Assembly (NCBI GenBank): GCA_003599415.1
Contig: QZKB01000047.1
Location: 1,832 to 65,831 of the forward strand
Direction: 5' to 3'
Origin: Ignavibacteriales bacterium
Lineage (GTDB): Bacteria; Bacteroidota; Ignavibacteria; Ignavibacteriales; SURF-24
DNA length: 64,000 bases
Shown here: in pieces, positions 24,723-45,155 of the stretch
How positions within the stretch are numbered: the first letter of the stretch is position 1
Layout of the letters: each line of letters starts with the position of its first letter
Made by a program: the position numbers and the translations under genes
Notes under the pieces: generated by a model
The model's database searches: none
Told to the model about the DNA's origin: nothing
The model's input: only the letters and a program-made list of their open reading frames with translations

Positions 24723-24747
24723 GGGAAGTGATTATGTATCACTTCCC
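24723..24747 (-). terminator. Hairpin downstream of the 5'-nucleotidase gene
   Basis: GGGAAGTGAT-tatgt-ATCACTTCCC, a perfect 10-bp stem 12 nt past the stop. The minus-strand tail is only moderately T-rich. Confidence 0.5.
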
Positions 24748-26894: not shown

Positions 26895-26951
26895 TGCGTA
26901 CCTCCATTTGATTATTTCTATATGAAAATTAGAATTATCGCATCAATCATT

Positions 26952-26979
26952 TGTCAAAAAAATATCAAAGAGATGTAAA
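26952..26979 (-). promoter_or_regulatory. Pho-box-like array of 11-bp-phased hexamers upstream of the 5'-nucleotidase gene
   Basis: Read in gene sense: TTTACA-tctct-TTGATA-ttttt-TTGACA, 58-85 nt upstream of the start codon. Confidence 0.5.
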
Positions 26980-27029
26980 AGTTTTATTCACTTATTTCTT
27001 AGCATAAGCCTGCTGAATTCATTAATTGA

Positions 27030-29159
27030 TTAAAAAATATGTCCAAAGTTGAAATATAATCCTGCAGTTTCGTTAGAGAATCCGGCATCAAAACGGACGA
27101 TAAAATTATCCAAGTTGAAACGTAAACCTACGGAAGGATTCATCTTCCAACCTGAAAGATCAATATCACTAAATGACGGAAACACCTGCCCGGCATCTAA
27201 TCCAATGATACCAGTAAATCTATTGTAAATTGGAAATCTTAATTCACCATTAAACAGGATTGAACATTTATCTATTAACCTATCCTGGGGGAAGCCACGA
27301 AGCGTTTTATTCCCGCCCAATGAATATAAAACCTGTACCGGAAGATTATTACATGAAATATTTTGTAACCGGAACCGTAATGCCAAAACAGTTTTCGGAT
27401 AAAATAAAATTGAATACGATTGACATTCGAAGTAATACCTGCTAAAGTCAACACCATGTTCGGTATCGTCATTAATTTTACCTGAGGTTTCAACTTCGCC
27501 CTGTAAAACCATTCCGCCGGAAGGATTAATATAGCTGTTCCTGGAGTCGTAACGTGGATTTAAAAAGACTGAGACAAAATAAGCGCTGGAATCTGAAGAA
27601 GATTTTACCAATTCTTTCAGCTTGCCGGTACTTTCGAAATTATAAACAGAAGCGCCTTTGAACCTTAATCCAAATTGCCCGACAAATTTTGTCGTAAATC
27701 CGCGGCTTGCAGACAAACAAATTTCTACCGGTTCTTTAGTATAGAATTCCTGGTCAACATATTTTGAATTTTTCCCGATGCCATAAAATCCATTCTTAAT
27801 CATTTTATCGTAATCGATACTAAAATCTATAGCAACAGGATAAATTTTTCCATGGCGTTTTTCAATGTCTGGAATGGAAAAAACTAACCTGTACCAACGC
27901 TCACCTTTAGTACTGTTGAATGCAGTAAGGTCAATAGATTCATTCTGATCGAATAAATTCATGAAGAATGCTTTTGCACCATAGCCAAAACCAATATCAG
28001 TATCATACATTAAAATGGGAAATGGTTCAATCGAGGAATAATTTATGTTAGTAAAGTAATCGGTTTCCTTTTTTATTTTACCTGAAATTCCTGATAAATA
28101 AATTTCAGAATAAACTCCTAAATGATCGGATGCCTGCACATCACCATCAAGTGAGTCTAATATAATTTTGTATTCTTTACTACACTTTTCATTAAAAAGG
28201 TTACTAAGGAATAAGTAATCAATAGTTCTTGGCGAAAGATCATAATAACGGTACATCAACTTGTATGCATCTTTATCTTCATTATTTGAACCGGAATCGG
28301 ATATTGAATAACCGATGTTTATATTTTTATATGGCAGCCAGGTAAACGGGGATTCAACTGATTCTTTTTGAGTATTAAGCAAATTATTCTCTGAAATTAA
28401 TTTTACTAAATGCGGATCATCAGGCTCAATATTAAAATCGCCCCCAAGTATAAATGGAATTCCGACCGGTAAATCTTTTAGCTTTTCACTTAATGTTTCA
28501 AATTCACATGAACGATTTTTTAATTTACGTGCCCATTCTTTCAATCCGTCATCATACTCTTCTTTTGATATGATATTTTTTGATAATAAATCTTCAAGGT
28601 AATTTCTTAAAGCAGGTTTGTCAGGTGGTGTCGAATTTGTATGCACATTGACTAAATAAACAGGCAATCCGTTTACATTTATCTTTGCTACTAAAGCAAA
28701 ATTAGTCTCATTAAATTGAGTTGAAAAGTAATCTCCGTACAGGCCAAACATACCGGAAAGTTTCCAGGCATCTGTTTTTTCAAGATTATATTTTGTTCTG
28801 GCAAGAATTGTAATTCCCTCTGAAAGATTTGTAGGAAATCCTAATGACGCTATTTTAATTCCGCCATTACAAACCTGGTGAACTTCATCCATTCCAAGCA
28901 ATCGTGCTATTCTTGAGGAATATGTTTTAACAGGATTTACTTCCTGCAGGAAAATTATATCGGCATTAATATCTTTTAACTGACTAACAAGAAACTGAAA
29001 TCTTTTTTCTGCTTTTTCTTCACTTTCATATTCACCCATTTTGATTGTGCCTTTATAATCCAGTCCTGACCAGACATTAATAGTGATTACTTTTAAACTC
29101 TGGCTGTAAACATTTAGGCATAATAAAAATAAAAGAAACAGGAAATATTTCTTCAGCAT
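27030..29159 (-). CDS. Endonuclease/exonuclease/phosphatase (EEP) domain fused to an Omp85/surface-antigen-type beta-barrel
   Basis: The N-terminal half has the EEP pattern ('DIIFLQEVN', 'GGDFNIEP', 'SDHLGV'). The C-terminal half has 'SLGGNKTLRGFPQDR', 'VGLRFNL..FIVRFDAGFS' and ends in '...NFGHIF'. The start at 29159 gives a clean signal peptide (MLKKYFLFLLFLLCLNVYSQ); the ORF track starts at 29183. Confidence 0.6.
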   Translation of the reverse strand: MLKKYFLFLLFLLCLNVYSQSLKVITINVWSGLDYKGTIKMGEYESEEKAEKRFQFLVSQLKDINADIIFLQEVNPVKTYSSRIARLLGMDEVHQVCNGGIKIASLGFPTNLSEGITILARTKYNLEKTDAWKLSGMFGLYGDYFSTQFNETNFALVAKINVNGLPVYLVNVHTNSTPPDKPALRNYLEDLLSKNIISKEEYDDGLKEWARKLKNRSCEFETLSEKLKDLPVGIPFILGGDFNIEPDDPHLVKLISENNLLNTQKESVESPFTWLPYKNINIGYSISDSGSNNEDKDAYKLMYRYYDLSPRTIDYLFLSNLFNEKCSKEYKIILDSLDGDVQASDHLGVYSEIYLSGISGKIKKETDYFTNINYSSIEPFPILMYDTDIGFGYGAKAFFMNLFDQNESIDLTAFNSTKGERWYRLVFSIPDIEKRHGKIYPVAIDFSIDYDKMIKNGFYGIGKNSKYVDQEFYTKEPVEICLSASRGFTTKFVGQFGLRFKGASVYNFESTGKLKELVKSSSDSSAYFVSVFLNPRYDSRNSYINPSGGMVLQGEVETSGKINDDTEHGVDFSRYYFECQSYSILFYPKTVLALRFRLQNISCNNLPVQVLYSLGGNKTLRGFPQDRLIDKCSILFNGELRFPIYNRFTGIIGLDAGQVFPSFSDIDLSGWKMNPSVGLRFNLDNFIVRFDAGFSNETAGLYFNFGHIF

Positions 29160-29258
29160 TTTATCACCCAAGGTTGTGTACAATTGATTCTATAATAAAC
29201 ACCTTTCAGAATTCAAACTAATTCCAGTGACAAATCTAAAGTCTATCCCAACCTTTGA

Positions 29259-29297
29259 TGTCAAAAAAATGTCATAACAATGTAAATGTTCTGTAAG
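29259..29297 (-). promoter_or_regulatory. Pho-box-like array of four 11-bp-phased hexamers upstream of the EEP-Omp85 gene
   Basis: Read in gene sense: CTTACA-gaaca-TTTACA-ttgtt-ATGACA-ttttt-TTGACA. The hexamers start exactly 11 bp apart (29292, 29281, 29270, 29259 on the plus strand). Confidence 0.55.
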
Positions 29298-29317
29298 AAT
29301 TTACCTGTTACTGACTA

Positions 29318-29998
29318 TCATTTTCTGAACCTGTACCCGGCTTTTGGTGCTGTAATAATAAATCTTGGTTCGGAAGAATCATCTTCAATTTTTTTACGAA
29401 GCGAGAGTATATAGTTATCCACCGTTCTTGTTGTCGGAAAAGTGTCGTATCCCCAGATTTCATTCAGAAGTATTTCTCTTGTTACAACCTGGTCTTCATG
29501 CTCAACCATATACTTTAATACTCTGAACTCAGTAACCGAAAGGTCAACAAGCTTTTTGTTTTTAGTAACTTCCTGTTTTTTGAAATCAATATTTATTTTG
29601 CCGAAACTAAACTCACTTAATTCATTTTCCTGTTTCTCATTTCTTCGGATTACAGCTTTAATGCGAGCTAATAATTCCCTTGTACTAAATGGTTTTGTAA
29701 CATAATCATCAGCGCCTGTTTCCAGTCCAATTATCTTATCAATTTCATCCTTTTTGCTCGTAAGAATAATTATTGGTGTCTGAACTTTTTCAGCCCGCAA
29801 TAAACTGCAGACTTCCATCCCATTCTTCTTCGGCAGCATCAGATCAAGAATAATAATATCGTAGTTATTTTTTCTTGCAAGGTTAAATCCTTTTTCACCA
29901 TCTTCGGCTGTTGAAACAATAAAATGCTCATCCTTAAGGCTTAATTCCAATCCCTGAAGAATTGCAGGGTCATCTTCGATAACAAGAATTTTTTTCAT
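29318..29998 (-). CDS. OmpR/PhoB-family response regulator
   Basis: Receiver domain ('ILVIEDD', 'DIIILDLMLP', 'GLETGADDYVTKPFSTRELLARIKAVIRR', very close to E. coli PhoB in this segment). Winged-helix C-terminus ('TRTVDNYILSLRKK...GYRF'). Confidence 0.85.
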   Translation of the reverse strand: MKKILVIEDDPAILQGLELSLKDEHFIVSTAEDGEKGFNLARKNNYDIIILDLMLPKKNGMEVCSLLRAEKVQTPIIILTSKKDEIDKIIGLETGADDYVTKPFSTRELLARIKAVIRRNEKQENELSEFSFGKINIDFKKQEVTKNKKLVDLSVTEFRVLKYMVEHEDQVVTREILLNEIWGYDTFPTTRTVDNYILSLRKKIEDDSSEPRFIITAPKAGYRFRK

Positions 29999-30029
29999 TT
30001 CTTTCCGTAAAAGATTATCTAAAAAAATT

Positions 30030-32468
30030 TTATTTGTTTTTTATAACCGGGAAAAGCAGGCTAAAACTTGTGCCTTTATTTAATTCGCTTTCAATTTCAA
30101 TTCTACCGTGATGAAAATCCATTGCATGCTTTACAATAGCCAAACCTAAACCGGTGCCGGCAACTCTTCGTGCTTCTTTGTCTTCCGATCTGAAATACGG
30201 TTCAAAGATTTTTTCCTTATCGTTCTGGTTTATACCTATGCCCTTATCTTTTATTCTTACTAAAACGAAGCTGTCTGAGAAATCAGTCTCAATTGTAATT
30301 TCCTTTTCATCACGGGAATATTTCATTGCATTAGAAATAATATTCACAACACACTCTATAATACTATCTTTGTCCGCTGTTACAGGAAGTCTTTTGTCTA
30401 CTAAGTTTTTGTTAACGGTAAACTTCTGCATCTGGAGTTGGTATTCCATTATCCTGAGTGAGTCTTCAACAATAACATTAAGATCGGTTTCAGTGAACCG
30501 GTAGTTCTTTATTCCTCTTTCAATTTTTACAAGATCCAGAACATTATCAATCATTCTGCTTAGTCTGTCGCTTTCCCCTTGAATTATTTTAAGGTGGTTG
30601 GAAAACTTAGGATCTGTATTACATTCATTATTTTCGAGCCGTTCGGTAAAAATCCTGATTGATGTAAGAGGCGTCTTAAATTCATGAGAAACGCTTGAAA
30701 CAAAATAAGATTTTAACCTGTTAAGTTCTTCGAGTTTTTCTTTTTCAAGCCGGTCAAGTATTATTTTTTCCTGCAACTGAATTCTTTCAATTGCCTGTGC
30801 CGATTCGTTTGAAAGCTGATTTAACAAATCGAAGTCTTCTTTATAATACCTGTTACCGGATTTCTTCTTCCCCATCAATTCAACAGCTACTAATTCACCT
30901 AAGACATTAACCGGAAAGATGAGAGCAATATTTCTTTTATTAAGAGATTTAGCTTCAGATATCTGAACCGGAATCCCTGCTTCAACACTATTGAAAGTTG
31001 CTATGGGATTGATTCTCAATTCCTCAACACTTTTTGGAGTTAAGAATATTTTATGCCTGTCAAAACCGGGCAGGTTTATCTGTCTGATAATAGTAAGTGA
31101 ATTGTCGTGTTTATTAAAAGTGAATATTCCTATTTTTTCAGCTGGGATTAACTTGTTTACCTCAGTTATAATCCTGTCTGCCAGCTCTGAAATACTTGTT
31201 GAAGTTTGTATTGCTTTAAATGTATCATTTATTGCTTTTCTAAAATCATAATGAATCCTGAAAAACTTTTTATCTACAAAATCCTGTACATATTTTTTTA
31301 ACGGTTGAAATATCAGTGCAATCAAAACAGCAGCTAGGACAGACGAAAAAGCAGGACCAACACTTACAAGATATGTTATACCGACTATTATTGAAACATA
31401 TAATACAATCAAAAAGGAAATGACAATAACATAAACCACACCGCGATTGATAATAAGGTCAATATCGTATAAATGATATTTAACTATGGCAATTCCAAAG
31501 GTTACAGGGATAGCCGACATTAGGATTAAGATAAATTCTTCGGGAATTAAACCATTGGTTGTTATTGCCTGAGGAATTACCCACAGTACAATAAATGAAA
31601 CCGGACCCGCAATAAAACCAAGCAGCACCCATTTTAATTTCTTTTTATCAATGTCAGATCTGAGTTTTCTATAGGTTAAAATGAATATCAGTATTGCCAG
31701 AAGAACTGAAATGACTACAAAAATTCTTGTGTAGTTGAAATACCTGATATATACAAGCGAGTATGAAATATCATTTATGTTAGATAATGGAATAAAGACT
31801 ATGCTTAGAATAATTGTAAGAGCCAGGGAGAGCAAATAAAACGGAATAATGTAAATGCTCCTTAATCTGTTTGTAGGAAACACTAATGTAAAATGCAGAA
31901 AGAGAGCAGGGGCAAAGGTATAAGCCGCGTGAAAAACATATCTTGTCAAATGACCAAGCCATTCCGGTTTTACCTGGTGGTTCCCCCAAGTTGTCATTAT
32001 AATTGCCGCAGTACAGATAACCACGTTATGAAAAGTATAAGCCTGTTGAAGGTTTTCTGCTTTATATAAAACTATGACTGCAATAAGAAAAAACAAGACA
32101 CCCACAAGCAAAACAATAAGCAAATAAAAAGTTGTGTAAAATGGTATAAGGTTTACAAAGAAATCAAATTGTCTGTTATATCTTTCCACTGAGATTTTAA
32201 CCATATCACCAATATTTTTCCCATCCAAATAAATTTCAATATGTTCACGGGAGACAAACTTATAATTATCAATTGAAACTATTCTATCATCATGGTTCAA
32301 GGGAGAATTGAAGATTTGCTTGTCAATAAATAAATGACTATCTGATTCATAAATTGAAAATGGAAGATCAGCTTTCAGATAAATATGATAAATACCGGAA
32401 AGGCAAACCAGGAATAGAAAGATATCAAAAGCAAGTAATAATTTTTTTGTATTATATCTTATCTTCAT
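30030..32468 (-). CDS. Polytopic sensor histidine kinase (PDZ-like loop + multi-TM sensor + HisKA + HATPase)
   Basis: H-box 'SVSHEFKTPLTSI'. N-box 'IISNAMKYS'. G-boxes 'DKGIGI' and 'GTGLGLAIV'. The N-terminal 390 aa or so hold about 8 TM helices. Confidence 0.8.
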   Translation of the reverse strand: MKIRYNTKKLLLAFDIFLFLVCLSGIYHIYLKADLPFSIYESDSHLFIDKQIFNSPLNHDDRIVSIDNYKFVSREHIEIYLDGKNIGDMVKISVERYNRQFDFFVNLIPFYTTFYLLIVLLVGVLFFLIAVIVLYKAENLQQAYTFHNVVICTAAIIMTTWGNHQVKPEWLGHLTRYVFHAAYTFAPALFLHFTLVFPTNRLRSIYIIPFYLLSLALTIILSIVFIPLSNINDISYSLVYIRYFNYTRIFVVISVLLAILIFILTYRKLRSDIDKKKLKWVLLGFIAGPVSFIVLWVIPQAITTNGLIPEEFILILMSAIPVTFGIAIVKYHLYDIDLIINRGVVYVIVISFLIVLYVSIIVGITYLVSVGPAFSSVLAAVLIALIFQPLKKYVQDFVDKKFFRIHYDFRKAINDTFKAIQTSTSISELADRIITEVNKLIPAEKIGIFTFNKHDNSLTIIRQINLPGFDRHKIFLTPKSVEELRINPIATFNSVEAGIPVQISEAKSLNKRNIALIFPVNVLGELVAVELMGKKKSGNRYYKEDFDLLNQLSNESAQAIERIQLQEKIILDRLEKEKLEELNRLKSYFVSSVSHEFKTPLTSIRIFTERLENNECNTDPKFSNHLKIIQGESDRLSRMIDNVLDLVKIERGIKNYRFTETDLNVIVEDSLRIMEYQLQMQKFTVNKNLVDKRLPVTADKDSIIECVVNIISNAMKYSRDEKEITIETDFSDSFVLVRIKDKGIGINQNDKEKIFEPYFRSEDKEARRVAGTGLGLAIVKHAMDFHHGRIEIESELNKGTSFSLLFPVIKNK

Positions 32469-32563
32469 ATACCGCTTTATTAATATATCCGTAACCAGAA
32501 AGAAAGGAATAGAAGACCCATGAAAATTAAATTATAGCATATGAATAAGCAATAGTAAGCATG

Positions 32564-33592
32564 CTATAACTTTGTCATCATTCTTTGATATTCGTTTTTG
32601 TTATGTGTTACAGAAATAAGAAGCATGATTGGTGCTACAATTGTTGTAAACTGCATAAAGACCATACTCACAAGTTCATACCCCATCAATATTCTGGGTA
32701 TTAAACATAAAAACACATAAATAAGCGGACCAAATGTTATTCCTGATAATGCCCAGTAAATCTGCTTTTTATGTGTAACATCATTTATTGAAAGAGCAGA
32801 GTGCTCAAACTTTGCAATTGTAAGAATAATTACTATTACAAGAAAAACATCGGCAACAGTTGTATGAAAGTTCAGGTAATAAAGTTTATTAATATCGGCA
32901 TTAAAGAAAAATATTTTTACAAGTTGTATACAACTAATAACTATGAAGGTAATAGCAGCGCAGTAAACAGCAGAAAGGAAAAAAATATTCTTACTTTTTG
33001 TCTTGACCGGATAAGTGAAGCTTAAATGAAGGAATAGTGCTGGCACCATATATATACTAATTTCAAACAGTAAGAAAATTATAAAATTCAGGGACCTGCC
33101 GTAAGTAATAAGATCGCCCCAATCAAATATTATCATTATACCTGTGCACACTGAAAGCGCATGGATGATAAATGAAAAAGAATTATTCCTGTATTTAATA
33201 AGAATGAAAACACCGGTAAAAAAGAAAAACAAAGTAACAACCATCATTATTGCCAATTCATAGTTCTCGTATGTATTTACCAGAATAACTTTTGGCGTTG
33301 TAATTTCTGAATCAGCACCGATTGATTTAACATTTACCGTATCTTTGGCTTTATGACTCAACAAATAAAATTCAAGCTGCCCGTTCTTATTTATTTCCTT
33401 ACCGTCAAATTCAATTACCTGTTTTTTCCTGTAAATATTTTTAACATCAAAAGAAAAATTATTTATCATTGCCTGATATTCAGTAGGTAATGAGGCCTTT
33501 TCACTGAATAACCTAAGATTGAGAAAAGCTAGAATGAGCAGGCAAAAATCTATTGCCAAAAGAAAAACTATTATTTTCCTTTTTGAATTCAT
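32564..33592 (-). CDS. Kinase-less paralog of the sensor module of the adjacent histidine kinase
   Basis: Same layout as HK residues 1 to about 330: TM1, a soluble loop of about 90 aa, then multiple TM helices. Shared 'VPALFLHLSFTYP' versus 'APALFLHFTLVFP'. Its start overlaps the upstream stop by 4 nt. Confidence 0.55.
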   Translation of the reverse strand: MNSKRKIIVFLLAIDFCLLILAFLNLRLFSEKASLPTEYQAMINNFSFDVKNIYRKKQVIEFDGKEINKNGQLEFYLLSHKAKDTVNVKSIGADSEITTPKVILVNTYENYELAIMMVVTLFFFFTGVFILIKYRNNSFSFIIHALSVCTGIMIIFDWGDLITYGRSLNFIIFLLFEISIYMVPALFLHLSFTYPVKTKSKNIFFLSAVYCAAITFIVISCIQLVKIFFFNADINKLYYLNFHTTVADVFLVIVIILTIAKFEHSALSINDVTHKKQIYWALSGITFGPLIYVFLCLIPRILMGYELVSMVFMQFTTIVAPIMLLISVTHNKNEYQRMMTKL

Positions 33593-34563
33593 CTTTTAAC
33601 TCCATCTAAGGTTGTAAAAACTTGTAACCTATCCTTTGCTATTTCAATTGTACATGATAAGTAACCCGCCGGATCCCCGTCAAACTCAACTTCCGGATGA
33701 ATAATATTATTCCTGATTTCAATCTTTGAGGCATATTCTTTTGCAAGAAATGATGTATCAGAAAAATTTTCACCTGTATATAAAATCTTTATAAGTCTCG
33801 GAAGTTCTGATAACCTGATCTGGTTCGTTTTAAGAATATAAAACTGATCATCAGGAATTAAATCATCTTTATAAACTTTGATTCCTGAAGCAATGAATTT
33901 TGTAATTCCAACAGAAATATTAATTATATTTTTTACTTCTCTCTCTTCTGAATTTATTGAAATACTATAATCGGTTCCCCTGTAACTAAAAAGTATTTTT
34001 AAAAATGAAATGAACGTTCCAAGAAAATCTCCAAGATACCCTCTTATTCCCGAGCTTGCGCTTCTTGCTAATGAAGCGCCTAGCCCAATATTGGCGCAGC
34101 AAGCAAAGTATTTTGTCGTATCCGGATTCTTCTGAGTATTTCCATCATTCTTTTGAGGCCGGGTATTTAATCTTATCATACCAACGGGAATATTTATAAA
34201 GTGCTGAGCCATTATTACGTCTGCTGCCTGTAAAATATTGGTGGGAATATTATAGCTTTTACAAAAATCCGGACTAGTACCGGTATGAATAACTCCAAAC
34301 CTTGAAGAAGAAATTTTATTCCCGTTACCATCATAAAATCCATTAAGAACTTTATTAATTGTACCGTCACCTCCTACGGCAACAATGTTATTAATACCGT
34401 CTTTATTTGCTTGTACAGAAATGTTGTAGGCGTCATCAAAATTATTAATCTCCGTAAAATCAAAAGAGAAATTTTTATCTTGCAGGTATCTGCATACTCT
34501 CTTTGCAAGAGCACCCGACTTTCCACCCCTGGAATAAGGATTAATAATCAGAAGAGTTTTCAT
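33589..34563 (-). CDS. Diacylglycerol/lipid kinase family protein (YegS/BmrU-like)
   Basis: 'LLIINPYSRGGK' and 'VAVGGDGTINKVLNG' catalytic-domain motifs. Confidence 0.7.
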   Translation of the reverse strand: MKTLLIINPYSRGGKSGALAKRVCRYLQDKNFSFDFTEINNFDDAYNISVQANKDGINNIVAVGGDGTINKVLNGFYDGNGNKISSSRFGVIHTGTSPDFCKSYNIPTNILQAADVIMAQHFINIPVGMIRLNTRPQKNDGNTQKNPDTTKYFACCANIGLGASLARSASSGIRGYLGDFLGTFISFLKILFSYRGTDYSISINSEEREVKNIINISVGITKFIASGIKVYKDDLIPDDQFYILKTNQIRLSELPRLIKILYTGENFSDTSFLAKEYASKIEIRNNIIHPEVEFDGDPAGYLSCTIEIAKDRLQVFTTLDGVKR

Positions 34564-34565
34564 TC

Positions 34566-35738
34566 TTAGTTCCAGTGTTCAAAAAGATTTACAACTTTAT
34601 TAACCGAACTCTCTTTTATATTTGCTCCGGCAATCAATCTTATTCTGCCGTCATTTTTCCTTACCGAAGGATAAATAAACGGTGTTGAAAAAACGCCGTT
34701 ATCAAATAATTTTTTTGCAAAGTCTATTGTATCTTCCGAAGTACCAGCTATAATAGAGGTTATGGGAGCAGTACTGTCTGCTACCCGGAAACCGTTTCTT
34801 ACAAGAGCCTGCTTTAATAAATTTGAATACCTGAAAACTTTTGCTGCCCTTACATCATATTCTTCTTTGACTATATCAAGTGTTTTATTTATTCCCGCAA
34901 TAACAGACGGAGAAATGGCTGTTGAGTAAATTAGGTGCGAACTGCTGTAACTTAAATAATTAATCAACTCTTTACTTCCGCCAACTACCCCACAGTTATT
35001 CGCAAAGGCTTTTCCCAAAGAAGTTGTATAAATAACATCATCATCATCAATTCCCGAATGTGAAAGAATACCTTTCCCTTTTCTACCAATTACTCCAATT
35101 CCATGTGAATCATCCACAACAGGAATAGCATTGTATTTCCTGCACAACTCACAGATTTCCTTAAATGGAGCAATACTTCCTTCAGTTGAAAAAACAGATT
35201 CTGTTACCACAAAGATTTTTGGGCTGAGGTAATATTTTTCAAGCAGATACTCGAGCGACACAACATCATTATGACTGAAAGGTAATGATCTGCATCCGAC
35301 GCTTCTGATTCCCTGAATTAAAGAGGAATGAGCAAATCTATCGAATAAAATTAAATCTTCTTTTTTTGCAACAGCCTGGAAAATTCCATTATTAGCTTGG
35401 TAGCAGGATGGATATAAGATTACGCTCTCTACTCCGATAAAAGAAGCCAGCTTTCTTTGTGTATCTTCGAATAATTCTGTATAACCTCCTGCAATAGGAG
35501 TAGCGCACATTGAAATACCGTATTTTCTTATAGCATCAATATATACTTCCTTTATCCTGGAATCGTTGGACAACCCGAGATAATTATTTGTGGCAAGATT
35601 AACAACTTCTTTTCCGTTAACATAAACCGGATCGTTCTGTTCGCTGTTTATGGAAAGATAATAAGGATTGAATCCTTTTTTTAATACAGAATCGTCCAGC
35701 TGAAATCTATCTTTCAGACAAATACTTTCCGTTCTCAT
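34566..35738 (-). CDS. PLP-dependent alpha-oxoamine synthase (Spt/BioF/Kbl family)
   Basis: 'DDSHGIGVIGRKGKG' and PLP-lysine context 'TSLGKAF'. I prefer the ATG at 35738 (GAGGTG RBS, no overlap) over 35777. Confidence 0.75.
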   Translation of the reverse strand: MRTESICLKDRFQLDDSVLKKGFNPYYLSINSEQNDPVYVNGKEVVNLATNNYLGLSNDSRIKEVYIDAIRKYGISMCATPIAGGYTELFEDTQRKLASFIGVESVILYPSCYQANNGIFQAVAKKEDLILFDRFAHSSLIQGIRSVGCRSLPFSHNDVVSLEYLLEKYYLSPKIFVVTESVFSTEGSIAPFKEICELCRKYNAIPVVDDSHGIGVIGRKGKGILSHSGIDDDDVIYTTSLGKAFANNCGVVGGSKELINYLSYSSSHLIYSTAISPSVIAGINKTLDIVKEEYDVRAAKVFRYSNLLKQALVRNGFRVADSTAPITSIIAGTSEDTIDFAKKLFDNGVFSTPFIYPSVRKNDGRIRLIAGANIKESSVNKVVNLFEHWN

Positions 35739-35758
35739 AACGCACCTCTTAAAATTAA

Positions 35759-36967
35759 TTATCCTTTTGAATAACAAATTGTTGGTTTACCGGAATCGCA
35801 CATGAAAACACATTTATTACAATTGATGCACCTTGATTTATAATCTCCATCTGTTGCAGCAAGTTTTTCTGCAAAGTCAGGTTCACAAATAAAGGGTCTT
35901 GCCATACCTACTAAATCAGTCTGTTTATTATTTATTGCATTCTCTATTTCAAATTTAGATCTGAATCCGCCAACAGAAATAACAGGAATTGTTGTTAACT
36001 GTTTTGCCCTTTCAGCATAGCGAAGATTATAAGCAGGAGAAAAATCGATGAACCTGGAACTTATAAAGGTATTTATATAGAATTTCATCAAATATTTTTT
36101 AATGGGATTATCTGTCAGGAATATGGGATTGTGTTTAAATACTAACTCTAAATCCAGATCACCTCTGAAAATATTAATCGCATAATCCATTGTACCATAG
36201 CTTATTTCTATAGCATCAAAATGTTTTCCATCCAGGAAACTGATTAAGTGGTCGAACTGATCAGGGAAAAAATTACTGCCGAGATTATGATCTCCGCTTA
36301 TTTTAACAAGTACAGGAAACGAATTATCGCACCCGGCTTTTATACTGTCAAATATCTCTTCCAGAAGTTTTATACCGAGGTGAGTCTTTTTATCAATGCC
36401 ATATTTATTTTTTAGTACATTAGTTTCCGGGAGTAAAAACTGATGAAGCAAATAACCGTGAGCAGCATGTATCTGAACGCCGTCAAAACCGGCTTCCTTT
36501 GCCAGGTAAGCTGCGTTTGAAAACTGCATGATTACTTCTTCAATTTCCGAATCATTTATTAAGGATGGCTTCTGTCTGAAATAGACAGACGATTTCTTGG
36601 TGCTCGAAATTATTTTACTGTTTGTTACCTTTTTAATTGTTTGCCTACCCGAATGGGCAATCTGCAATATTATAGGGACATTATGTTTATGTACTTCATC
36701 TGTAATTTTTCTGTACGAAAGAATTTTTTTACTTGTATCTATTCCTGCCTGTGCCCGCTGCATTGCTCTGCCATTGCCTGAAACAAATGCAAACCCGGTT
36801 ATTATCATTCCAACTTGTTTTTCCGCGAGTGATTTATATAATGCAATGTATTTAGAATTAGGATTTCCATTTTCATCAGCAGCTCCCTCAAATGTAGCAG
36901 ACCGAACAATCCTGTTTCTAAGGGTCATTCCTCCAATTTTATAACTGTTAAATATTATTGAATCCAT
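35759..36967 (-). CDS. Old-yellow-enzyme-type NADH:flavin oxidoreductase with C-terminal Cys cluster
   Basis: 'LRNRIVRSATFEG', 'IILQIAHSGRQ', 'GFDGVQIHAAHGYLLHQFL'. C-terminal 'CINCNKCVFMCDSG'. Confidence 0.7.
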   Translation of the reverse strand: MDSIIFNSYKIGGMTLRNRIVRSATFEGAADENGNPNSKYIALYKSLAEKQVGMIITGFAFVSGNGRAMQRAQAGIDTSKKILSYRKITDEVHKHNVPIILQIAHSGRQTIKKVTNSKIISSTKKSSVYFRQKPSLINDSEIEEVIMQFSNAAYLAKEAGFDGVQIHAAHGYLLHQFLLPETNVLKNKYGIDKKTHLGIKLLEEIFDSIKAGCDNSFPVLVKISGDHNLGSNFFPDQFDHLISFLDGKHFDAIEISYGTMDYAINIFRGDLDLELVFKHNPIFLTDNPIKKYLMKFYINTFISSRFIDFSPAYNLRYAERAKQLTTIPVISVGGFRSKFEIENAINNKQTDLVGMARPFICEPDFAEKLAATDGDYKSRCINCNKCVFMCDSGKPTICYSKG

Positions 36968-36970
36968 TAC

Positions 36971-37978
36971 CTAACCCTTCACATTAACATGGAAATTAAA
37001 AAGGAATCCAATAAAGAAATAGGATAACAGAAACAGAACAACTCCAAATGCAGGATTGAAAATTGCAATTATTGCCGATTCAGTACAGGCACATGCCCTG
37101 AAATTCATGGAAAGTGAAAAATAAGTTTTACTACCAATCGGATTTTCATAGTAAAGGTAGCCTGTCCATAACTGCATTCCTGTTGCAATTAATGCCAGCT
37201 CCATAAAAATATTATTTAACTGGTATGCCCATACTTCAAAACCGAAATAAAATATCATGAAAATAAATATCGGAAGAAATGAAGCAAACAGAGCCAGTTT
37301 CTTCGAACGCTCAATACCCAACTTAACTATTAATGTATTTTTACCGGCAAGTTTATCTCCTTCATAATCCTTAAAGTAAGTATACAAGGTCATTAACCCG
37401 TTTAATAAAGAAAGGTAGAGGATCATTAAAATGTTTCCGACAGAAATTATTGAAGCGTCTGTTTTTCCTGAGGCCAAGAATCCAAACACAGCACAAATAG
37501 AAATCATAATACCAAAAATTATATTCCCCCAGATTCCGTAACCTTTGGCATATTCATAAATAAGATTAAGTATTATTCCTGCAAAAAGTGGTATTACAGC
37601 AACAGGTTCCAGATAAAACCATGTAACCAGAATTGCACAGGTCATAAGCAGCGTAGATAAAAGTATTGCATACTTAGGATTCAACTCTCCTGTAACCATT
37701 GGTCGTTCAGGGGCATTTATTCTATCTTCGTTTATCCCAAGGTAGTCGTTATAAATCTGATTAATGCCCCACGCAAAAAATAGAATTATCATTATTACAA
37801 CTAACTTTGTAAACGAGGTTGGCTGAAAAATTAGAGAATGTTTTTCGGTTGAGTATGCAAGATACTGGTAATAAGAAATACCGATCAAACCGGCTATTCC
37901 TGTAATGAAGGAATAATATAGCCTCATTGATTTTATGTACGCTCTTATAAATGTTTCAATTTTTTTTATATGAATCAT
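36971..37978 (-). CDS. UbiA-superfamily prenyltransferase (DGGGPS/ChlG-like motif)
   Basis: About 8-9 TM helices. First Asp-rich motif 'NDYLGINEDRINAPERP'. Second motif 'KDYEGDKLAG'. Confidence 0.75.
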   Translation of the reverse strand: MIHIKKIETFIRAYIKSMRLYYSFITGIAGLIGISYYQYLAYSTEKHSLIFQPTSFTKLVVIMIILFFAWGINQIYNDYLGINEDRINAPERPMVTGELNPKYAILLSTLLMTCAILVTWFYLEPVAVIPLFAGIILNLIYEYAKGYGIWGNIIFGIMISICAVFGFLASGKTDASIISVGNILMILYLSLLNGLMTLYTYFKDYEGDKLAGKNTLIVKLGIERSKKLALFASFLPIFIFMIFYFGFEVWAYQLNNIFMELALIATGMQLWTGYLYYENPIGSKTYFSLSMNFRACACTESAIIAIFNPAFGVVLFLLSYFFIGFLFNFHVNVKG

Positions 37979-37990
37979 ATTTATTCTTCT

Positions 37991-39283
37991 TTATAACTTT
38001 ATTACCCGTTTATAAAAATCTGCTTCTTCACCTCTATTCCAGCCGTTAATTACCTGTTGTGATAATTCTTTTGAAAGAGGCAGAACAGTAATATTATTTT
38101 CCTTAACAATTGCTGCTATGCGGGCAGAGCAAATCTCGCAAAGCCAGCTATCGCCGGATTTTCGGAAAGAATCCCTCATTCGAGCATAAATCAAATCAAA
38201 GTCCTCATCCTTAATATTTCCGAAAGAAATATTTAAGAATTCACAAGGCTGGACATCTCCTTTTGCATTAATGTAAAACCGATCTGTACCACCGGCAGTG
38301 CAACCGAACATATCGCTTCTTTCATCTTCAATCTGTGCATATATAAAAGGATAATTCCTGAATTCTTTCCTGTTATTGTACTGGTGTACTTTTTCTTCTA
38401 TATGAATAAGATCCTCTCTTGAAAAGTTGCCTATGTCAGCACCAAGCCATCCACCTGATGGCTTAGGTTTAATTAGCTGAATTAATGTTATCCCTAATTT
38501 TTGTGCAAGCTCAATAATTTTTTGAAAGTTACCATTATAAAAATCTTCTTTAAGAATGCAGGTATTTGCTGTAACTTCCAACCCGGCTTCATGACATAAG
38601 ATTATTCCATTAGATAAATTATCCCAGGCTTTCTCATTTTTCATGAACTGATTTATTCTTTCGGGATATGGAGAGTGAAGAGAGAACATAATACCATATA
38701 CACCGGCATTTTTAAGTTGCAGAAGCTTTTCCCTGCTCATACCGTCCCCGGTTGAATTAATCCAGATTTCACCGACCTTGATTGCATCGCACAATTTTAA
38801 AAGTTTATCAAACACAAGGAATGGTTCACCGCCTTCAATATTAAAAAATGAGACTCCCCTTTTATCAAGTCTTGCTGCAATATCGCAAAGAAGATTTATA
38901 TCCACATCTTTACCTTTATCCATCTTCTGATAACAATGTTCACAATTATAACGACAGGCAGAAGTAACTGATAGAAGAACTGAAATACATGGCATACTTT
39001 CTTCCGAAACCAAAACTTTCTTGCTGGCTTTAAAAAATGCCTTTGACGGAAACGCCGGTACATACAGATTCATTTTAATGTATTTCCCAGATTTGACATA
39101 CTTGTTCATTTTCATTTTAGAAAGGAAGAAAAGTAATCGTTTGAGAAACCGGATAAAATTTCTTGCGGGTATTTTACCTGTAAGCATTTCAAGCAGGAAA
39201 TGGAAAAAGACATATATTTTAATATAGTTATCATATATCATCTTCTCCCGACCAATTAAATATTTTATATTACCCATAACCAA
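37991..39283 (-). CDS. Radical SAM enzyme
   Basis: 'SACRYNCEHCY' CxxxCxxC motif. 'GGEPF'. The C-terminal Cys-containing region ('GCTAGG...QPCEF', 'CEICSARI') suggests an auxiliary cluster. Confidence 0.75.
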   Translation of the reverse strand: MVMGNIKYLIGREKMIYDNYIKIYVFFHFLLEMLTGKIPARNFIRFLKRLLFFLSKMKMNKYVKSGKYIKMNLYVPAFPSKAFFKASKKVLVSEESMPCISVLLSVTSACRYNCEHCYQKMDKGKDVDINLLCDIAARLDKRGVSFFNIEGGEPFLVFDKLLKLCDAIKVGEIWINSTGDGMSREKLLQLKNAGVYGIMFSLHSPYPERINQFMKNEKAWDNLSNGIILCHEAGLEVTANTCILKEDFYNGNFQKIIELAQKLGITLIQLIKPKPSGGWLGADIGNFSREDLIHIEEKVHQYNNRKEFRNYPFIYAQIEDERSDMFGCTAGGTDRFYINAKGDVQPCEFLNISFGNIKDEDFDLIYARMRDSFRKSGDSWLCEICSARIAAIVKENNITVLPLSKELSQQVINGWNRGEEADFYKRVIKL

Positions 39284-39289
39284 ATCCTC

Positions 39290-40324
39290 TTATAGATATT
39301 TATTTTCTTTGTACCAAAGGATAGTTTTTTCTATACTTTCTTCCAGAGAATAATCCGGAGTAAAATCCAGAAGAGCCTTTAGCTTTTCAGAAGAGTACTC
39401 AATATTATCATAAAATATATTTACTCTGCCTCGTGAAATTGGCGGCGCATTTTTACTTCTGGATATTGTGTACATAAGTTCCGTTAAAAATGCAGGCGGA
39501 TAAATAATTGATTTAGGAATCCGATGAGGTATTTTAATGCCTGCTTTTTCGCAAAACAGGTTGAACAAATTAAATTGATTCGGAGCCTCGGGAGCAACAG
39601 CAAGAATTTTATTTACTCCCTGTAATTCTTTTTTATATGACAGATAATAAATTTTTCCAAGATCTCTTGCATATATGGTATGAAATTTATTTTTCTTTGA
39701 ACCCGGCAGAAAATGCAAACCACCTTTTACGAGTTTAATGAAATCGTAAAATCCTGAATGAAATTCTCTTTCTCCATATACCCAGGCAGGTTCAAGTATT
39801 GTTAAATTGAATTGATTCAGCTCAGCAAACTTAATTGCCTGAACATTTGCTTCAGCCTTTGTATCCCTGTAAAAATTTAAAGCCGAAGGAAAGATCTTAT
39901 CCATAAAATATTTGTAATGGGAACTGTATGGATAGTTCTCGTCCTTTACAATTGAAGAGGATTCTTCACCGTAGCATGAAACTGATCCGGTTATGATTAA
40001 ATTATTAATACTGTTTGCATAGGCAGCTTTCAAAACATTTGATGTACCTTCAACATTCACTTTACGGAAATCTTCATACGTACCCCAGTCTCCTACTTTT
40101 GCTGCAGTATGAATAACAAAATCGATTCCCGAATTAAAAACAGAGATCAATTTTTGCAGATCGGTTACATCCCCGTAAACAATATCTGCACCCAACATTT
40201 TCAAAAAACCAGTATCACTTCTTTCTCTCACCATACAAAATGGACTTATTCCTTTTGAATGGAAATATTCGGTAATATGACTTCCTATCAATCCATTTGC
40301 TCCGGTGACTAAAATCCTTCCCAT
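39290..40324 (-). CDS. NAD-dependent epimerase/dehydratase-family (extended SDR) enzyme
   Basis: 'ILVTGANGLIGSH' Rossmann motif. 'YRDTKAEA' YxxxK. Confidence 0.75.
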   Translation of the reverse strand: MGRILVTGANGLIGSHITEYFHSKGISPFCMVRERSDTGFLKMLGADIVYGDVTDLQKLISVFNSGIDFVIHTAAKVGDWGTYEDFRKVNVEGTSNVLKAAYANSINNLIITGSVSCYGEESSSIVKDENYPYSSHYKYFMDKIFPSALNFYRDTKAEANVQAIKFAELNQFNLTILEPAWVYGEREFHSGFYDFIKLVKGGLHFLPGSKKNKFHTIYARDLGKIYYLSYKKELQGVNKILAVAPEAPNQFNLFNLFCEKAGIKIPHRIPKSIIYPPAFLTELMYTISRSKNAPPISRGRVNIFYDNIEYSSEKLKALLDFTPDYSLEESIEKTILWYKENKYL

Positions 40325-41341
40325 CTAACTAATCCTACGAGAGATTAAATATTCAGTTAAGCATTTGATATACTCATAATGATCCTTGAAATCGCGGGCA
40401 GCTATATTGAAATCATTTAAGAGAAGCTGTTTATTCTTAATTTCTAAAATTTTTGATTTTTCTTTTGTAATCTTACCGATACAGAAGAGTTTAATTCCAA
40501 TGTCTTCAGCATCTTTAATCAATATTTTTTCGTCTCTCTGATTAATTGTGAAAAGCAATTCATACTCACCGCATTCGCCAAATAGCAGACATTCTTTGGG
40601 AAGACCAATTTTGTTAATCCAATCAATGCCAGGTTTAAAATAAGGTAGATTGTTAACAACAAAACCGCACTCATTTATTTCTGAGATGATATCCAATGAT
40701 TTATACAGTCCGTCGCTTGTATCAATACATGAAGTAGCATAGCTTGAAACAAGTTCAGCCTCCCTGAAACGTAGCGGAAAAATAATCTTATGTTTTTCGA
40801 AAAGCTCATCACCCTCACCAGAATTAATTTCATATAATGAGGAAGCGGCTTCGAAATTCCCTCTGCCAATCTCCCCGGTTAAAAAAATAAGATCTCCGTC
40901 GTTTGCACCTTTTCTTGTTACAATTTTGTTTGCCTCACCTATAGCAATTCCTGTAAAATTCCAATTTTCACAATAACCAAAATCACCTCCGATAAAGGCA
41001 ATTCCGCATTTTTCCAGTACATATGCAATTCCTTTTGAAAGAGAATCGATAAAATCAATACTCCAGGAGTGTTCGCAGTTAAGACTATTACAAAAGAATA
41101 AAGGTTTTCCTCCACATGCAAAAATATCACTCAGTGTACAAGTGGCAAGGTTCATACCCAGAATATAAGGATCATTTAACCTGAAGTGATCTTCATTAGA
41201 ATATGTATCGACAGTAATCAGATAATCTTTGTTGCCCAACTTAATAATTTCCGAATCTGACTGAAAGAATTGATTTCTATGTCTATCAGACTTCCTGAAA
41301 TTTCCAAGTATGGTTTTTATTATTTCATATTCACTAATCAT
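40325..41341 (-). CDS. AIR-synthase-related / ThiL-like ATP-utilising protein (PurM superfamily)
   Basis: 'DSEIIKLG...LITVDTYSNEDHF', 'NLATCTLSDIFACGGKP', 'FIGGDFG', 'GDLIFLTGEIGRG' follow the ThiL/PurM pattern. Confidence 0.6.
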   Translation of the reverse strand: MISEYEIIKTILGNFRKSDRHRNQFFQSDSEIIKLGNKDYLITVDTYSNEDHFRLNDPYILGMNLATCTLSDIFACGGKPLFFCNSLNCEHSWSIDFIDSLSKGIAYVLEKCGIAFIGGDFGYCENWNFTGIAIGEANKIVTRKGANDGDLIFLTGEIGRGNFEAASSLYEINSGEGDELFEKHKIIFPLRFREAELVSSYATSCIDTSDGLYKSLDIISEINECGFVVNNLPYFKPGIDWINKIGLPKECLLFGECGEYELLFTINQRDEKILIKDAEDIGIKLFCIGKITKEKSKILEIKNKQLLLNDFNIAARDFKDHYEYIKCLTEYLISRRIS

Positions 41342-41395
41342 TTATCAACTCTTTAATAATCTCATTTGTAAAATGCGCATTTAATTCGATTCTGT

Positions 41396-41423
41396 TGTCA
41401 TAATAATGTCATAAAAATGTAAA
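41396..41423 (-). promoter_or_regulatory. Pho-box-like array of 11-bp-phased hexamers upstream of the biosynthetic operon
   Basis: Plus strand TGTCAT-aataa-TGTCAT-aaaaa-TGTAAA. In gene sense this reads TTTACA-ttttt-ATGACA-ttatt-ATGACA, 55-82 nt upstream of the start at 41341. Confidence 0.5.
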
Positions 41424-41604: not shown

Positions 41605-41640
41605 AGCCGTGGATAGTGAAACAACTGTCCACGGCTTTTT
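41605..41640 (+). terminator. Attenuator hairpin 1
   Basis: AGCCGTGGA-(14 nt)-TCCACGGCT followed by TTTTT. Confidence 0.7.
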
Positions 41641-41646
41641 CATTTT

Positions 41647-41678
41647 AAAGCCGTGAGAATGCAAATCACGGCTTTTTT
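41647..41678 (+). terminator. Attenuator hairpin 2 (intrinsic terminator)
   Basis: AAAGCCGTGA-gaatgcaaa-TCACGGCTTTTTT. Its 5' arm is complementary to the 3' arm of hairpin 1. Confidence 0.75.
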
Positions 41679-41754: not shown

Positions 41755-43119
41755 ATGCGAGACAACAAATTTCACATTCACGTAAATGATATGCCGAACA
41801 AATGGTATAATATTCTTCCGGATCTTCCTGTACCATTAGCACCACCAATTCATCCCGGGACAAAAAAACCGATTAATCCTGAAGACCTTGCAGCAATTTT
41901 TCCAATGGAATTAATCCAACAGGAAATGAGTCCTGATAGGTTTATTGAAATTCCGGATGAAGTACTGGATGTTCTTTCCTTAAGCAGGCCAACACCAGTC
42001 ATCAGAGCTTACAGGTTAGAGAAAGCGCTCGATACTCCTGCCAAAATTTATTTCAAGTATGAAGGTGCAAATTCATCCGGAAGTCACAAATTAAACACGT
42101 CAATTGCACAGGCTTACTATAATAAAAAAGCCGGCATTAAAAGGATTGCAACTGAGACAGGTGCTGGTCAATGGGGCAGTGCGTTGGCAATGGCTTGTAA
42201 TCATTTTAATATGGAATGCCAGGTATTTATGGTAAAAGTAAGTTTTCAGCAGAAACCTTACAGGAAATCATTGATGCAGTTATTTGGCGCTGAAGTAATT
42301 CCAAGTCCGTCCAATCTTACAAACTCCGGAAGGAATGTTTTGGCACAATATCCGGATTCTCCCGGTTCACTCGGCATTGCAATTAGTGAAGCAGTTGAAG
42401 TTGCTGCACAGCGTGATGACACAAACTATTCACTTGGGAGTGTGTTGAATCATGTCTTACTGCACCAGACAATTATTGGTGAAGAAGCAAGATTGCAGAT
42501 GGAGATGGCCGGAGATTACCCGGATATAGTTATTGCTTGTGTTGGTGGCGGAAGTAATTTTGGTGGAATCGCATTCCCATTCCTAAGGGACAAACTTACC
42601 GGAGATAAAAAAGAACTTGAAGTTATTGCAGTGGAACCGGCTTCCTGTCCTACATTGACCCGAGGTAAATTCACATATGATTTTGGAGACGAAGCAGGAT
42701 TTACACCTTTACTTAAAATGTACACGCTCGGGCATAATTTCATTCCGGCAAAAATTCATTCAGGCGGATTAAGGTACCATGGAATGTCACCAATTGTATC
42801 TCACTTAAAGAGTCTTGATTTAATTAAGGCTGAAGCTTATTATCAGAAGGAAGTATTTGAAGCGGCAGTTCTATTTGCCCGTGAAGAAGGAATTGTTCCT
42901 GCACCTGAAAGTTCACATGCGATTAAATCTGCTATTGAACAGGCTAATAAATGCAAAGAAAGCGGAGAATCAAAGACTATCTTATTCAACCTTTCAGGAC
43001 ATGGATTTTTAGACCTTGCTGCATATGATGCATATCTTAGTGATCACCTTGAAGATCATGAAATGACTGAAGAAGAAATTGCAGAAAATGTAAAAGATCT
43101 GCCTGAAGTATTAGTCTAA
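41755..43119 (+). CDS. trpB: TrpB2-type tryptophan synthase beta-like PLP enzyme
   Basis: 454 aa (long TrpB2 form). '[14 protein letters not shown]' PLP-lysine motif, 'VGGGSNFGG', 'GGLRYHGM'. AGGAG RBS. Confidence 0.8.
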
Positions 43120-44636: not shown

Positions 44637-45155
44637 ATGACAGACATTTCTATCCGCGAAGACAAAAAAGAAATTCTGAATTTCAAAATTGACCTGATTA
44701 ACAAAAGGCACCAGGAAGGTTCGCTTATTACCTTGCTTCAGTCTGCACAGGATTCATACGGTTATGTACCGGAGAAAGTAATTCATTATATAAGCGAACT
44801 TGTTGGAATTCCGTCATCGGAAATTTATGGTGTGCTAACATTCTATTCGCAATTCAGGTTAAAGCCGATGGGAAAAAATATAATAAGGATTTGCGAAGGA
44901 ACAGCCTGCCACGTTAACGGCGCAAAAACGGTTCTATCTGTTCTGCAGGATGAACTTGGGATTTCCGTTGATGAAACTACTGATGATGGTTTATTTACAC
45001 TTCAGTCTGTTGCCTGCCTTGGCTGCTGCTCCCTTGCACCCGTTATGATGATTAACCAGGAAACTCACGGTAACCTTACGACAGAAAAAATTAAAAAAGT
45101 AATTAAGAGTTACAAATCCAACCAACACGCAGGAGTTACAAATGAAAAAAATTAA
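44637..45155 (+). CDS. NuoE/HydC-like [2Fe-2S] thioredoxin-fold subunit
   Basis: Cys pattern 'CEGTACHVNG...CLGCCSLAP'. Confidence 0.8.
   Translation: MTDISIREDKKEILNFKIDLINKRHQEGSLITLLQSAQDSYGYVPEKVIHYISELVGIPSSEIYGVLTFYSQFRLKPMGKNIIRICEGTACHVNGAKTVLSVLQDELGISVDETTDDGLFTLQSVACLGCCSLAPVMMINQETHGNLTTEKIKKVIKSYKSNQHAGVTNEKN

Follow-up and report, generated by a model that had tools for sequence, protein, structure and literature searches.

What controls the genes that follow three short, evenly phased repeat arrays on the minus strand of a 64,000-nucleotide (nt) stretch of Ignavibacteriales DNA, and to which signal do they answer? The stretch, hereafter the window, is part of contig QZKB01000047.1 and comes from a metagenome-assembled genome. 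Each array consists of three or four hexamers in 11-bp phase, and a sensor histidine kinase and an OmpR/PhoB-family response regulator are encoded among them. An earlier note, made from the letters alone, had likened the arrays to Pho boxes and proposed a Pho regulon. The arrays are real, conserved sites that keep their orientation, have a fixed promoter geometry and are linked in the genome to the regulator gene. They are probably the operators of the two-component system encoded among them, a degree of confidence that concerns the operator and regulon mechanism and not the phosphate signal. As to the signal, phosphate scarcity is the leading candidate, with about an even chance of being correct.

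Phased Hexamer Arrays in the Window

The arrays stand on the minus strand where the earlier note had placed them, and their hexamers and 5-nt spacers read as it described (Table 1). Their hexamer consensus is (T/A)T(T/G)ACA, and the 11-bp phasing is exact. The pattern WTKACA-N5-WTKACA-N5-WTKACA, which was taken from the window sites themselves, has four matches at three places in the window when one mismatch or none is allowed, and none in 100 dinucleotide shuffles; with three mismatches, its 10 matches against 6.7 expected are at chance level. The note's remark that other intergenic regions lack the motif also held: when both strands of the window were scanned with a 28-nt matrix derived largely from other genomes, no further position scored above 6 bits. 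Eight other proteins of the window carry a sorting tail of the type IX secretion system (T9SS) and have no array upstream; the motif therefore does not simply mark the promoters of secreted cargo in general. All arrays lie upstream of start codons, as had been claimed; the distances, previously put at about 55-115 nt, are corrected to 57 nt (26952-26979), 99 nt (29259-29297) and 54 nt (41396-41423), counted from the array end.

Table 1. Arrays, candidate promoter elements and genes of the regulated region, in window positions.
Feature	Position	Strand	Remarks
Array, 3 phased hexamers	26952-26979	minus	TTTACA-tctct-TTGATA-ttttt-TTGACA; before 5'-nucleotidase gene; matrix 31.1 bits
Array, 4 phased hexamers	29259-29297	minus	CTTACA-gaaca-TTTACA-ttgtt-ATGACA-ttttt-TTGACA; before EEP-Omp85 gene; matrix 34.3 bits
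Array, 3 phased hexamers	41396-41423	minus	TTTACA-ttttt-ATGACA-ttatt-ATGACA; before 8-gene biosynthetic string; matrix 33.8 bits
-10/-7-like element TAATTTTC	26924-26931	minus	+21 to +28; predicted transcription start ~26917-26919
-10/-7-like element TAGATTTG	29231-29238	minus	+21 to +28; predicted transcription start ~29224-29226
-10/-7-like element CATTTTAC	41368-41375	minus	+21 to +28; A at +22, TT at +25/+26; predicted transcription start ~41361-41363
Regulated unit 1, 8 tightly packed open reading frames	32564-41341	minus	follows array 41396-41423
ThiL/AIR-synthase-like protein	40325-41341	minus	first gene of unit 1
NAD-dependent epimerase/reductase (HpnA/OleD-like)	39290-40324	minus	unit 1
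Radical SAM-SPASM protein	37991-39283	minus	unit 1
UbiA prenyltransferase	36971-37978	minus	unit 1
OYE flavoreductase	35759-36967	minus	unit 1
Alpha-oxoamine synthase (BioF/Kbl/Spt-like)	34566-35777	minus	unit 1; under all equivalog cut-offs
DAGK-like lipid kinase	33589-34563	minus	unit 1
Membrane protein, 342 aa	32564-33592	minus	last open reading frame of unit 1; kinase-less paralogue of the kinase sensor
Sensor histidine kinase, 812 aa	30030-32468	minus	95-nt gap after unit 1
OmpR/PhoB-family response regulator	29318-29998	minus	31-nt gap after kinase; presumed array binder
Regulated unit 2, EEP-Omp85 protein	27030-29159	minus	signal peptide, endonuclease/exonuclease/phosphatase (EEP) domain, Omp85-type outer-membrane barrel (Pfam)
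Regulated unit 3, secreted 5'-nucleotidase	24759-26894	minus	metallophosphoesterase, 5'-nucleotidase C-terminal domain, T9SS sorting tail

Conservation Across Ignavibacteria

We collected 80 kinase-centred loci with 10-kb flanks (1.25 Mb) from species-representative genomes, found with a sensor-region alignment of 13 kinase homologues; almost all are from Ignavibacteria, with a few from Calditrichia, Kapaibacteria and distant Acidobacteria. In these loci, 49 matches to the strict pattern were counted. A matrix built from the strict matches scores 122 positions at 14 bits or more, against 3 in an equal-size first-order Markov null, and the 122 positions merge into 99 arrays. At least one array is present in 54 of the 68 loci that carry both kinase and regulator, most of the other 14 being short contigs. 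Array density is highest just downstream of the regulator gene, falling from 0.38/kb in the first kb to 0-0.03/kb at 8-10 kb. The acidobacterial loci, which hold only distant homologues of the kinase, contain no arrays.

Locus L203 (GCA_037975375.1), whose kinase is 84% identical to that of the window, is syntenic and keeps all three arrays. Array 41396-41423 is identical there, the 5'-nucleotidase array has TTTACA in place of the window's weak TTGATA, and a fourth array precedes an inserted 257-aa gene. Across the collection, arrays have two to four contiguous units and a gradient of hexamers: TTTACA prevails at the distal end, ATGACA or TTGACA at the proximal end, and TTTACA or TTGACA in between. 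These are direct repeats about one helical turn apart, conserved before orthologous genes and linked to a regulator gene. By this comparison, they represent a putative operator and regulon of the OmpR/PhoB type that is previously undescribed and widely conserved across Ignavibacteria.

A motif-first scan of metagenome contigs with TTTTKACAWTTYYWTGACA returned at least 120 loci, most of them from unrelated organisms. Among the matches listed are a few Ignavibacteria-like contigs, in which arrays lie upstream of 5'-nucleotidase, B12-radical-SAM or lipoprotein genes. The same query had 67 matches in viral contigs, and no homologue of a Pho protein or of a protein of the regulon accompanied any of them.

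Promoter Geometry

Nearly all arrays are in gene sense, and a typical array ends ~50-70 nt before the start codon. An alignment of 98 arrays at the last hexamer has A at +22 (87% of arrays), T at +25 (82%) and T at +26 (86%), which defines a TAnnTT element exactly 20 nt past the last hexamer; further on, at +32 to +36, there is a tGaAA motif. The three window sites all obey this pattern (TAATTTTC, TAGATTTG and CATTTTAC), and their predicted transcription starts are placed ~33-35 nt past the array. Because the promoter-proximal repeat ends exactly 20 nt upstream of TAnnTT, it would fill the -35 region, where the promoter itself lacks a -35 element at the proper spacing. This suggests that the arrays sit where an activator would replace the -35 element, in a class-II-type arrangement as at Pho boxes.

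The downstream element may represent either a TAnnnT-type -10 or a Bacteroidetes-type -7. Canonical sigma-70 promoters at the arrays were rejected: no array hexamer has a -10 at 16-18 nt, and promoter-like sites occur in the region at chance frequency. A Bacteroidetes-type TAnnTTTG promoter was likewise discarded as a proven identity, only TAnnTT being conserved.

One could still suppose that the arrays are a chance periodicity of AT-rich DNA, or repeated sigma-70 -35-like sequences without a regulatory role, given a genome of ~35% G+C and TTGACA being the sigma-70 -35 consensus. The comparative data refute this, and we assign it a negligible probability. A random AT-rich frequency, which the earlier note had named as the outcome that would count against its proposal, is not what the empty shuffles, the 122 positions against 3 in the null and the conservation across Ignavibacteria reveal. 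In addition, the arrays keep their phase, their orientation and their distance to the downstream element, and a 20-nt spacing is too long for, and incompatible with, a canonical -35/-10 pair.

Long tandem TTGACA runs with T-rich 5-bp spacers and an 11-bp period, iteron-like in appearance, were also encountered in phage contigs from IMG/VR (L208, L246, L262 and L220). They lack both the downstream TAnnTT element and related genes.

The Two-Component System and Its Predicted Mode of Action

The regulator contains Response_reg (1e-31) and winged-helix Trans_reg_C (1.3e-24) domains of Pfam, which place it in the OmpR/PhoB family. It matches MtrA, RegX3, PhoP and PrrA over its full length, with MtrA and RegX3 the closest solved structures, and it shares 36% identity with E. 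coli PhoB. Among NCBIfam models, YycF scores best (230 bits, cut-off 340), with PhoB (TIGR02154, 217), MtrA (211) and RpaB similar. These scores mark it as a generic protein of the PhoB/WalR/MtrA/RegX3 group.

An NCBI protein (locus tag C4539_05525) matches the kinase at 100% identity. The N-terminal 560 residues of the kinase are predicted to comprise a first transmembrane (TM) helix, a periplasmic PDZ-like segment, about seven more TM helices and a cytoplasmic linker; HisKA and HATPase domains follow. The PDZ match of the window kinase is weak, at 22 bits against a cut-off of 27. Models of PnpS, WalK, PhoR and Bacteroidetes PhoR match the kinase in the catalytic core only. The last product of unit 1 shares 23% identity with the N-terminal sensor of the kinase over 206 residues (E = 2e-14) and repeats its layout of a first TM helix, a periplasmic segment and multiple TM helices; L203 has it too, with 335 aa. 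This protein could be a co-sensor or feedback inhibitor of the kinase. In L203, a gene for a 307-aa receiver-guanylate/adenylate-cyclase protein (12432-13355) lies between kinase and regulator, overlapping the end of the kinase gene, and may give this kinase a second output branch.

From these features we infer that the regulator binds the arrays, that it activates rather than represses, and what the signal is. The predicted reaction can be rationalized into three steps. (i) Binding: the phosphorylated regulator would bind head-to-tail to two to four direct repeats of (T/A)T(T/G)ACA, 11 bp (one helical turn) apart, with the proximal repeat occupying the -35 region. (ii) Recruitment: the bound regulator would recruit RNA polymerase in a class-II-type manner, as PhoB and PhoP do at Pho boxes. 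(iii) Response: the induced regulon would include a T9SS-secreted 5'-nucleotidase, surface EEP phosphoesterase and Omp85-like proteins, small outer-membrane barrels, lipoproteins and an unusual lipid-biosynthesis operon and, in some genomes, would take in the kinase-regulator operon itself. If phosphate scarcity, the leading candidate, is the signal, scavenging of nucleotides or extracellular DNA would in this way be coupled to membrane-lipid remodelling.

Some observations weigh against this mechanism. The recognition helix of the regulator (RTVDNYILSLRKK) is unlike that of PhoB (RTVDVHIRRLRKA) at several positions, which we take to include positions that contact bases in PhoB. The promoter type is uncertain because TAnnTTTG is only weakly enriched upstream of genes in general. 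Lastly, genomic linkage cannot prove that this regulator, rather than a paralogue, binds the arrays.

A different regulator encoded elsewhere, e.g., a canonical PhoB, might bind them instead and have the local system as a mere member of its regulon. Such an arrangement would account for the arrays that precede the kinase gene itself in five loci and for a local regulator that is no PhoB equivalog, and candidates abound: Ignavibacteria are rich in OmpR-family regulators, and an E. coli PhoB query gave 103 tblastn matches in the loci. The distribution of the arrays argues otherwise, with a peak next to the local regulator gene and a decay beyond it, presence in 54 of the 68 loci with the kinase-regulator pair, and absence from the acidobacterial loci. 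Such a distribution is typically seen when a cognate regulator has its regulon nearby, and we consider an outside regulator improbable.

Comparison with Known Operators

A two-hexamer half of the matrix was scanned over 25 kb of E. coli K-12 DNA around pst-phoU and phoA-phoBR. The top three matches are the known Pho boxes of pstS (20.1 bits, ATGACAGTTTTATGACA), phoA (16.7) and phoB (9.5), in that order, which bears out the Pho-box likeness noted earlier; of 200 null simulations, six had a maximum of 16.7 or more and none attained 20.1. The E. coli box, CTGTCATA(A/T)A(A/T)CTGTCA(C/T), is bound by PhoB in place of a -35 element, and the window arrays share with it tandem direct repeats, a TGTCA/TGACA core, an A/T-rich 4-5-bp spacer, the 11-bp period and the -35 location. 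However, the E. coli matches are all on the strand opposite to the gene, and the orientation relative to transcription is therefore inverted: gene sense reads TGTCA there and TGACA here. The systems differ as well in their proteins, given the limited identity of the regulator to PhoB, its partly different recognition helix and a kinase that is not PhoR-like.

The PhoP box of B. subtilis has four TT(A/T/C)ACA repeats with 5±2-bp spacers on the coding strand of activated promoters. Like it, the arrays are gene-sense direct repeats of hexamers with an 11-bp period, three or four units over the -35 region, and a predicted activator of the OmpR/PhoB family. The match to this box proposed in the earlier note stands for spacing, strand and the distal TTTACA, which fits the consensus exactly, but not for the proximal (A/T)TGACA hexamers, since G occupies position 3 in 56% of hexamers and falls outside TT(A/T/C)ACA. 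The B. subtilis kinase also has a different sensor, and phosphate control is here only a candidate.

Three or more 11-bp direct-repeat units are found in the boxes of cyanobacterial SphR and Streptomyces PhoP. The arrays resemble these in number of units and period, as opposed to the single dimer site of many OmpR-family regulators; the unit sequences there are of the CTTAACCT and GTTCACC types. The WalR/YycF box, TGTWAH-N5-TGTWAH, is likewise a direct repeat of hexamers with a 5-bp spacer, and YycF is the best NCBIfam model of the regulator. Yet G breaks the W position in the same 56% of hexamers, including most proximal ones, the YycF score lies below its cut-off, and WalRK is an essential cell-wall system of Firmicutes.

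A parallel in gene organization is offered by Flavobacterium johnsoniae, whose phoBR cluster is phosphate-responsive and includes outer-membrane proteins, lipoproteins and a lipid-remodelling gene (PMC8115612). Its phosphate response also induces extracellular nucleases and T9SS cargo (PMC8115612). In both organisms, members of the FCB superphylum (Fibrobacterota-Chlorobiota-Bacteroidota), a two-component system is encoded amid its own targets, here predicted ones. The F. johnsoniae system is a canonical PhoBR with an experimentally established phosphate response, whereas the window regulator scores 183 bits against the Bacteroidetes PhoB model NF053854, which has a cut-off of 270.

Targets of the Arrays

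Counted by the first gene downstream of each of the 99 arrays, the most conserved target is the 5'-nucleotidase orthologue, with 28 arrays. It is followed by a small outer-membrane beta-barrel family of ~205 aa (10 arrays), EEP-Omp85 or Omp85-like barrels (six), alpha-oxoamine synthase (five), the kinase gene itself, which implies autoregulation (five), a second barrel-like family of ~196 aa (four), an unknown lipoprotein family (four), an EEP lipoprotein (three) and UbiA prenyltransferase (three). Genes met once each include those for a DAGK-like kinase, a ketoacyl synthase, an acyl-carrier-like protein, a short-chain dehydrogenase, a B12-type radical SAM protein and an Orn/DAP-type decarboxylase. 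Thus, the three targets of the window are the core of a conserved regulon, and the regulon is mostly local.

Is the Signal Phosphate?

The target set fits a role in phosphate supply. In Vibrio cholerae, the EEP-domain nuclease Xds and UshA are PhoB-dependent. More generally, ushA-type 5'-nucleotidases are recognised members of Pho regulons in other bacteria (PMC9306846), in line with the earlier view of the window's 5'-nucleotidase as a phosphate-scavenging enzyme. The phosphate-responsive cluster of F. johnsoniae, described above, points the same way.

Several lines of evidence tell against phosphate. The regulator scores 217.4 bits against the PhoB equivalog TIGR02154 (cut-off 296.2) and, as noted above, remains below the cut-off for Bacteroidetes PhoB; on the E. 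coli-type model PRK10161 it reaches 147 against 471. The kinase is not PhoR-like, with 185.5 bits on TIGR02966 (cut-off 334) from an alignment of residues 575-806 only, and no PAS domain was detected in it, so that its sensor is of a non-PhoR kind. No PstS, PstC, PstA, PstB, PhoU or PhoA was found by tblastn with E. coli queries in the window or within ±10 kb in the 80 loci, where generic ABC ATPases of 27-33% identity were the only matches; the same queries found none among the matches listed for the loci of the metagenome motif-first scan. Melioribacter roseus does have a pst-phoU operon (phoU MROS_2635, pstB MROS_2636, pstS MROS_2640; PMC5492636). Unit 1, moreover, encodes two kinases (ThiL-like and DAGK-like) and is not obviously phosphorus-sparing. 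Elsewhere in the window, no phosphate-related genes were found, and a literature search for phosphate-limitation expression data on Ignavibacteria returned none. Of the Pho assignment made in the earlier note, what stands is the linkage of Pho-box-like operators to a gene of the PhoB/OmpR family; the PhoB and PhoR equivalog cut-offs are not reached. Judged from the letters, the arrays are built to work like a Pho box, and membership of a Pho regulon is supported by neither protein-level test.

The same operators might instead serve a signal other than phosphate. The kinase would sense a condition of the envelope or outer membrane, such as unassembled outer-membrane proteins, as the PDZ domain of DegS does, or the state of the membrane lipids, and the regulon would remodel the cell surface. 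A sensor that joins a PDZ-like segment to multiple TM helices, with no PAS domain detected, is compatible with this idea, as are the many envelope components among the targets (Omp85-like barrels, small beta-barrels, lipoproteins and lipid-synthesis genes), the kinase-less sensor paralogue encoded within a regulated operon and the missing linkage to pst and phoU. On the other hand, the top target, with 28 of the 99 arrays, is a secreted 5'-nucleotidase and EEP phosphoesterases recur, for which nutrient scavenging is the better fit; the motif matches E. coli Pho boxes; and the PDZ match in the window is below its cut-off. An envelope signal is accordingly possible, though on the doubtful side.

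Returning to phosphate, a more specific proposal can be made. The PDZ-like/multi-TM kinase and its regulator would be the phosphate-starvation system of Ignavibacteria, combining a sensor unrelated to PhoR, inverted Pho-box-like operators, scavenging of nucleotides and extracellular DNA by the 5'-nucleotidase and surface EEP enzymes, and membrane remodelling by an undescribed pathway of UbiA, radical SAM, alpha-oxoamine synthase and lipid kinase enzymes. Taken as a whole, this proposal is tentative and rather unlikely to hold in every part. If it is a phosphate system, its sensor is unrelated to PhoR, and phosphate stress may therefore be sensed without the PstSCAB-PhoU relay.

Regulated Units and Neighboring Genes

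Pfam agrees with the earlier note on the EEP-Omp85 protein and the T9SS-tailed 5'-nucleotidase, and it confirms the regulator amid the block, after the kinase and downstream in the gene string of the operon. The operon itself, previously counted as seven genes, has eight open reading frames. The EEP-Omp85 gene likely starts at the ATG at 29159, which yields a signal peptide, and not at the TTG at 29183. A PDB sequence search with the EEP-Omp85 protein gave no match; with an EEP lipoprotein target, it gave only marginal matches to nocturnin and TDP2.

The operon at 32564-41341 probably encodes an undescribed lipid pathway, as its gene content suggests. None of its families reached an equivalog cut-off, and a literature search for the gene combination found no papers. 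Genes that join the regulon in other genomes code for acyl-carrier protein, ketoacyl synthase, short-chain dehydrogenase/reductase, a B12-type radical SAM protein and a pyridoxal-phosphate (PLP) decarboxylase; the related lipid-pathway genes of the regulon are those of loci L003, L016, L028, L036, L049, L055 and L067. The divergently transcribed PLP enzyme next to the operon (41755-43119) was considered as a cysteate synthase, which would have implied a phosphorus-free sulfonolipid pathway, and rejected: it is TrpB-like, with 739 bits to PRK12391. The 413-nt divergent region between the operon and this gene holds two overlapping GC-rich hairpins (41605-41656), terminator-like on both strands, kept in L203 and without an Rfam match. 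Rfam and tRNA scans of the window found nothing.

Just downstream of the 5'-nucleotidase gene, with a terminator-like hairpin (24723-24747) in between, lies a gene for a 323-aa lipoprotein (23727-24698, minus strand). The protein ends in an aromatic residue, is probably an outer-membrane barrel and has no Pfam or NCBIfam match; its orthologue in locus L014 has an array of its own.

Further away, an unusual protein (43442-44437, plus strand) fuses a receiver domain to an AsnC/Lrp-type ligand-binding domain, and no DNA-binding domain was recognised in it by Pfam. The plus-strand genes at 44637-50681 encode NuoE-like and NuoF-like subunits and then a 1251-aa fusion of a 2Fe-2S domain, a GltD-like pyridine-nucleotide-disulphide oxidoreductase, a ferredoxin domain of the NuoG-like kind and a molybdopterin oxidoreductase domain; a sigma-54-type two-component pair follows at 50692-53904. 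The eight T9SS-tail proteins without arrays are encoded at 75-14442 (plus strand) and 55434-60748 (minus strand). They include a DUF3160 protein, BNR/sortilin-like repeats, a 1614-aa beta-helix/cohesin protein, a CotH kinase with lamin-tail domains and a CE2/GDSL esterase.

Significance

Ignavibacteria occur widely, with sediments, hot springs and wastewater among their habitats. To our knowledge, essentially no genetics has been done in the group, and we know of no described regulon. The analysis adds a high-information operator model, a predicted promoter architecture, a putative cognate two-component system and a target set conserved in dozens of genomes. The interest would be greater if the PDZ-like/multi-TM kinase turned out to sense phosphate without being related to PhoR, or if the lipid operon made a new lipid. 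Should the signal not be phosphate, the system would be a cautionary case, in which resemblance to a Pho box alone cannot identify a Pho regulon. A phosphate signal, in turn, would show that a kinase whose sensor is completely different can drive a Pho-type operator, and an uncharacterised lipid-biosynthesis operon would gain a physiological role.

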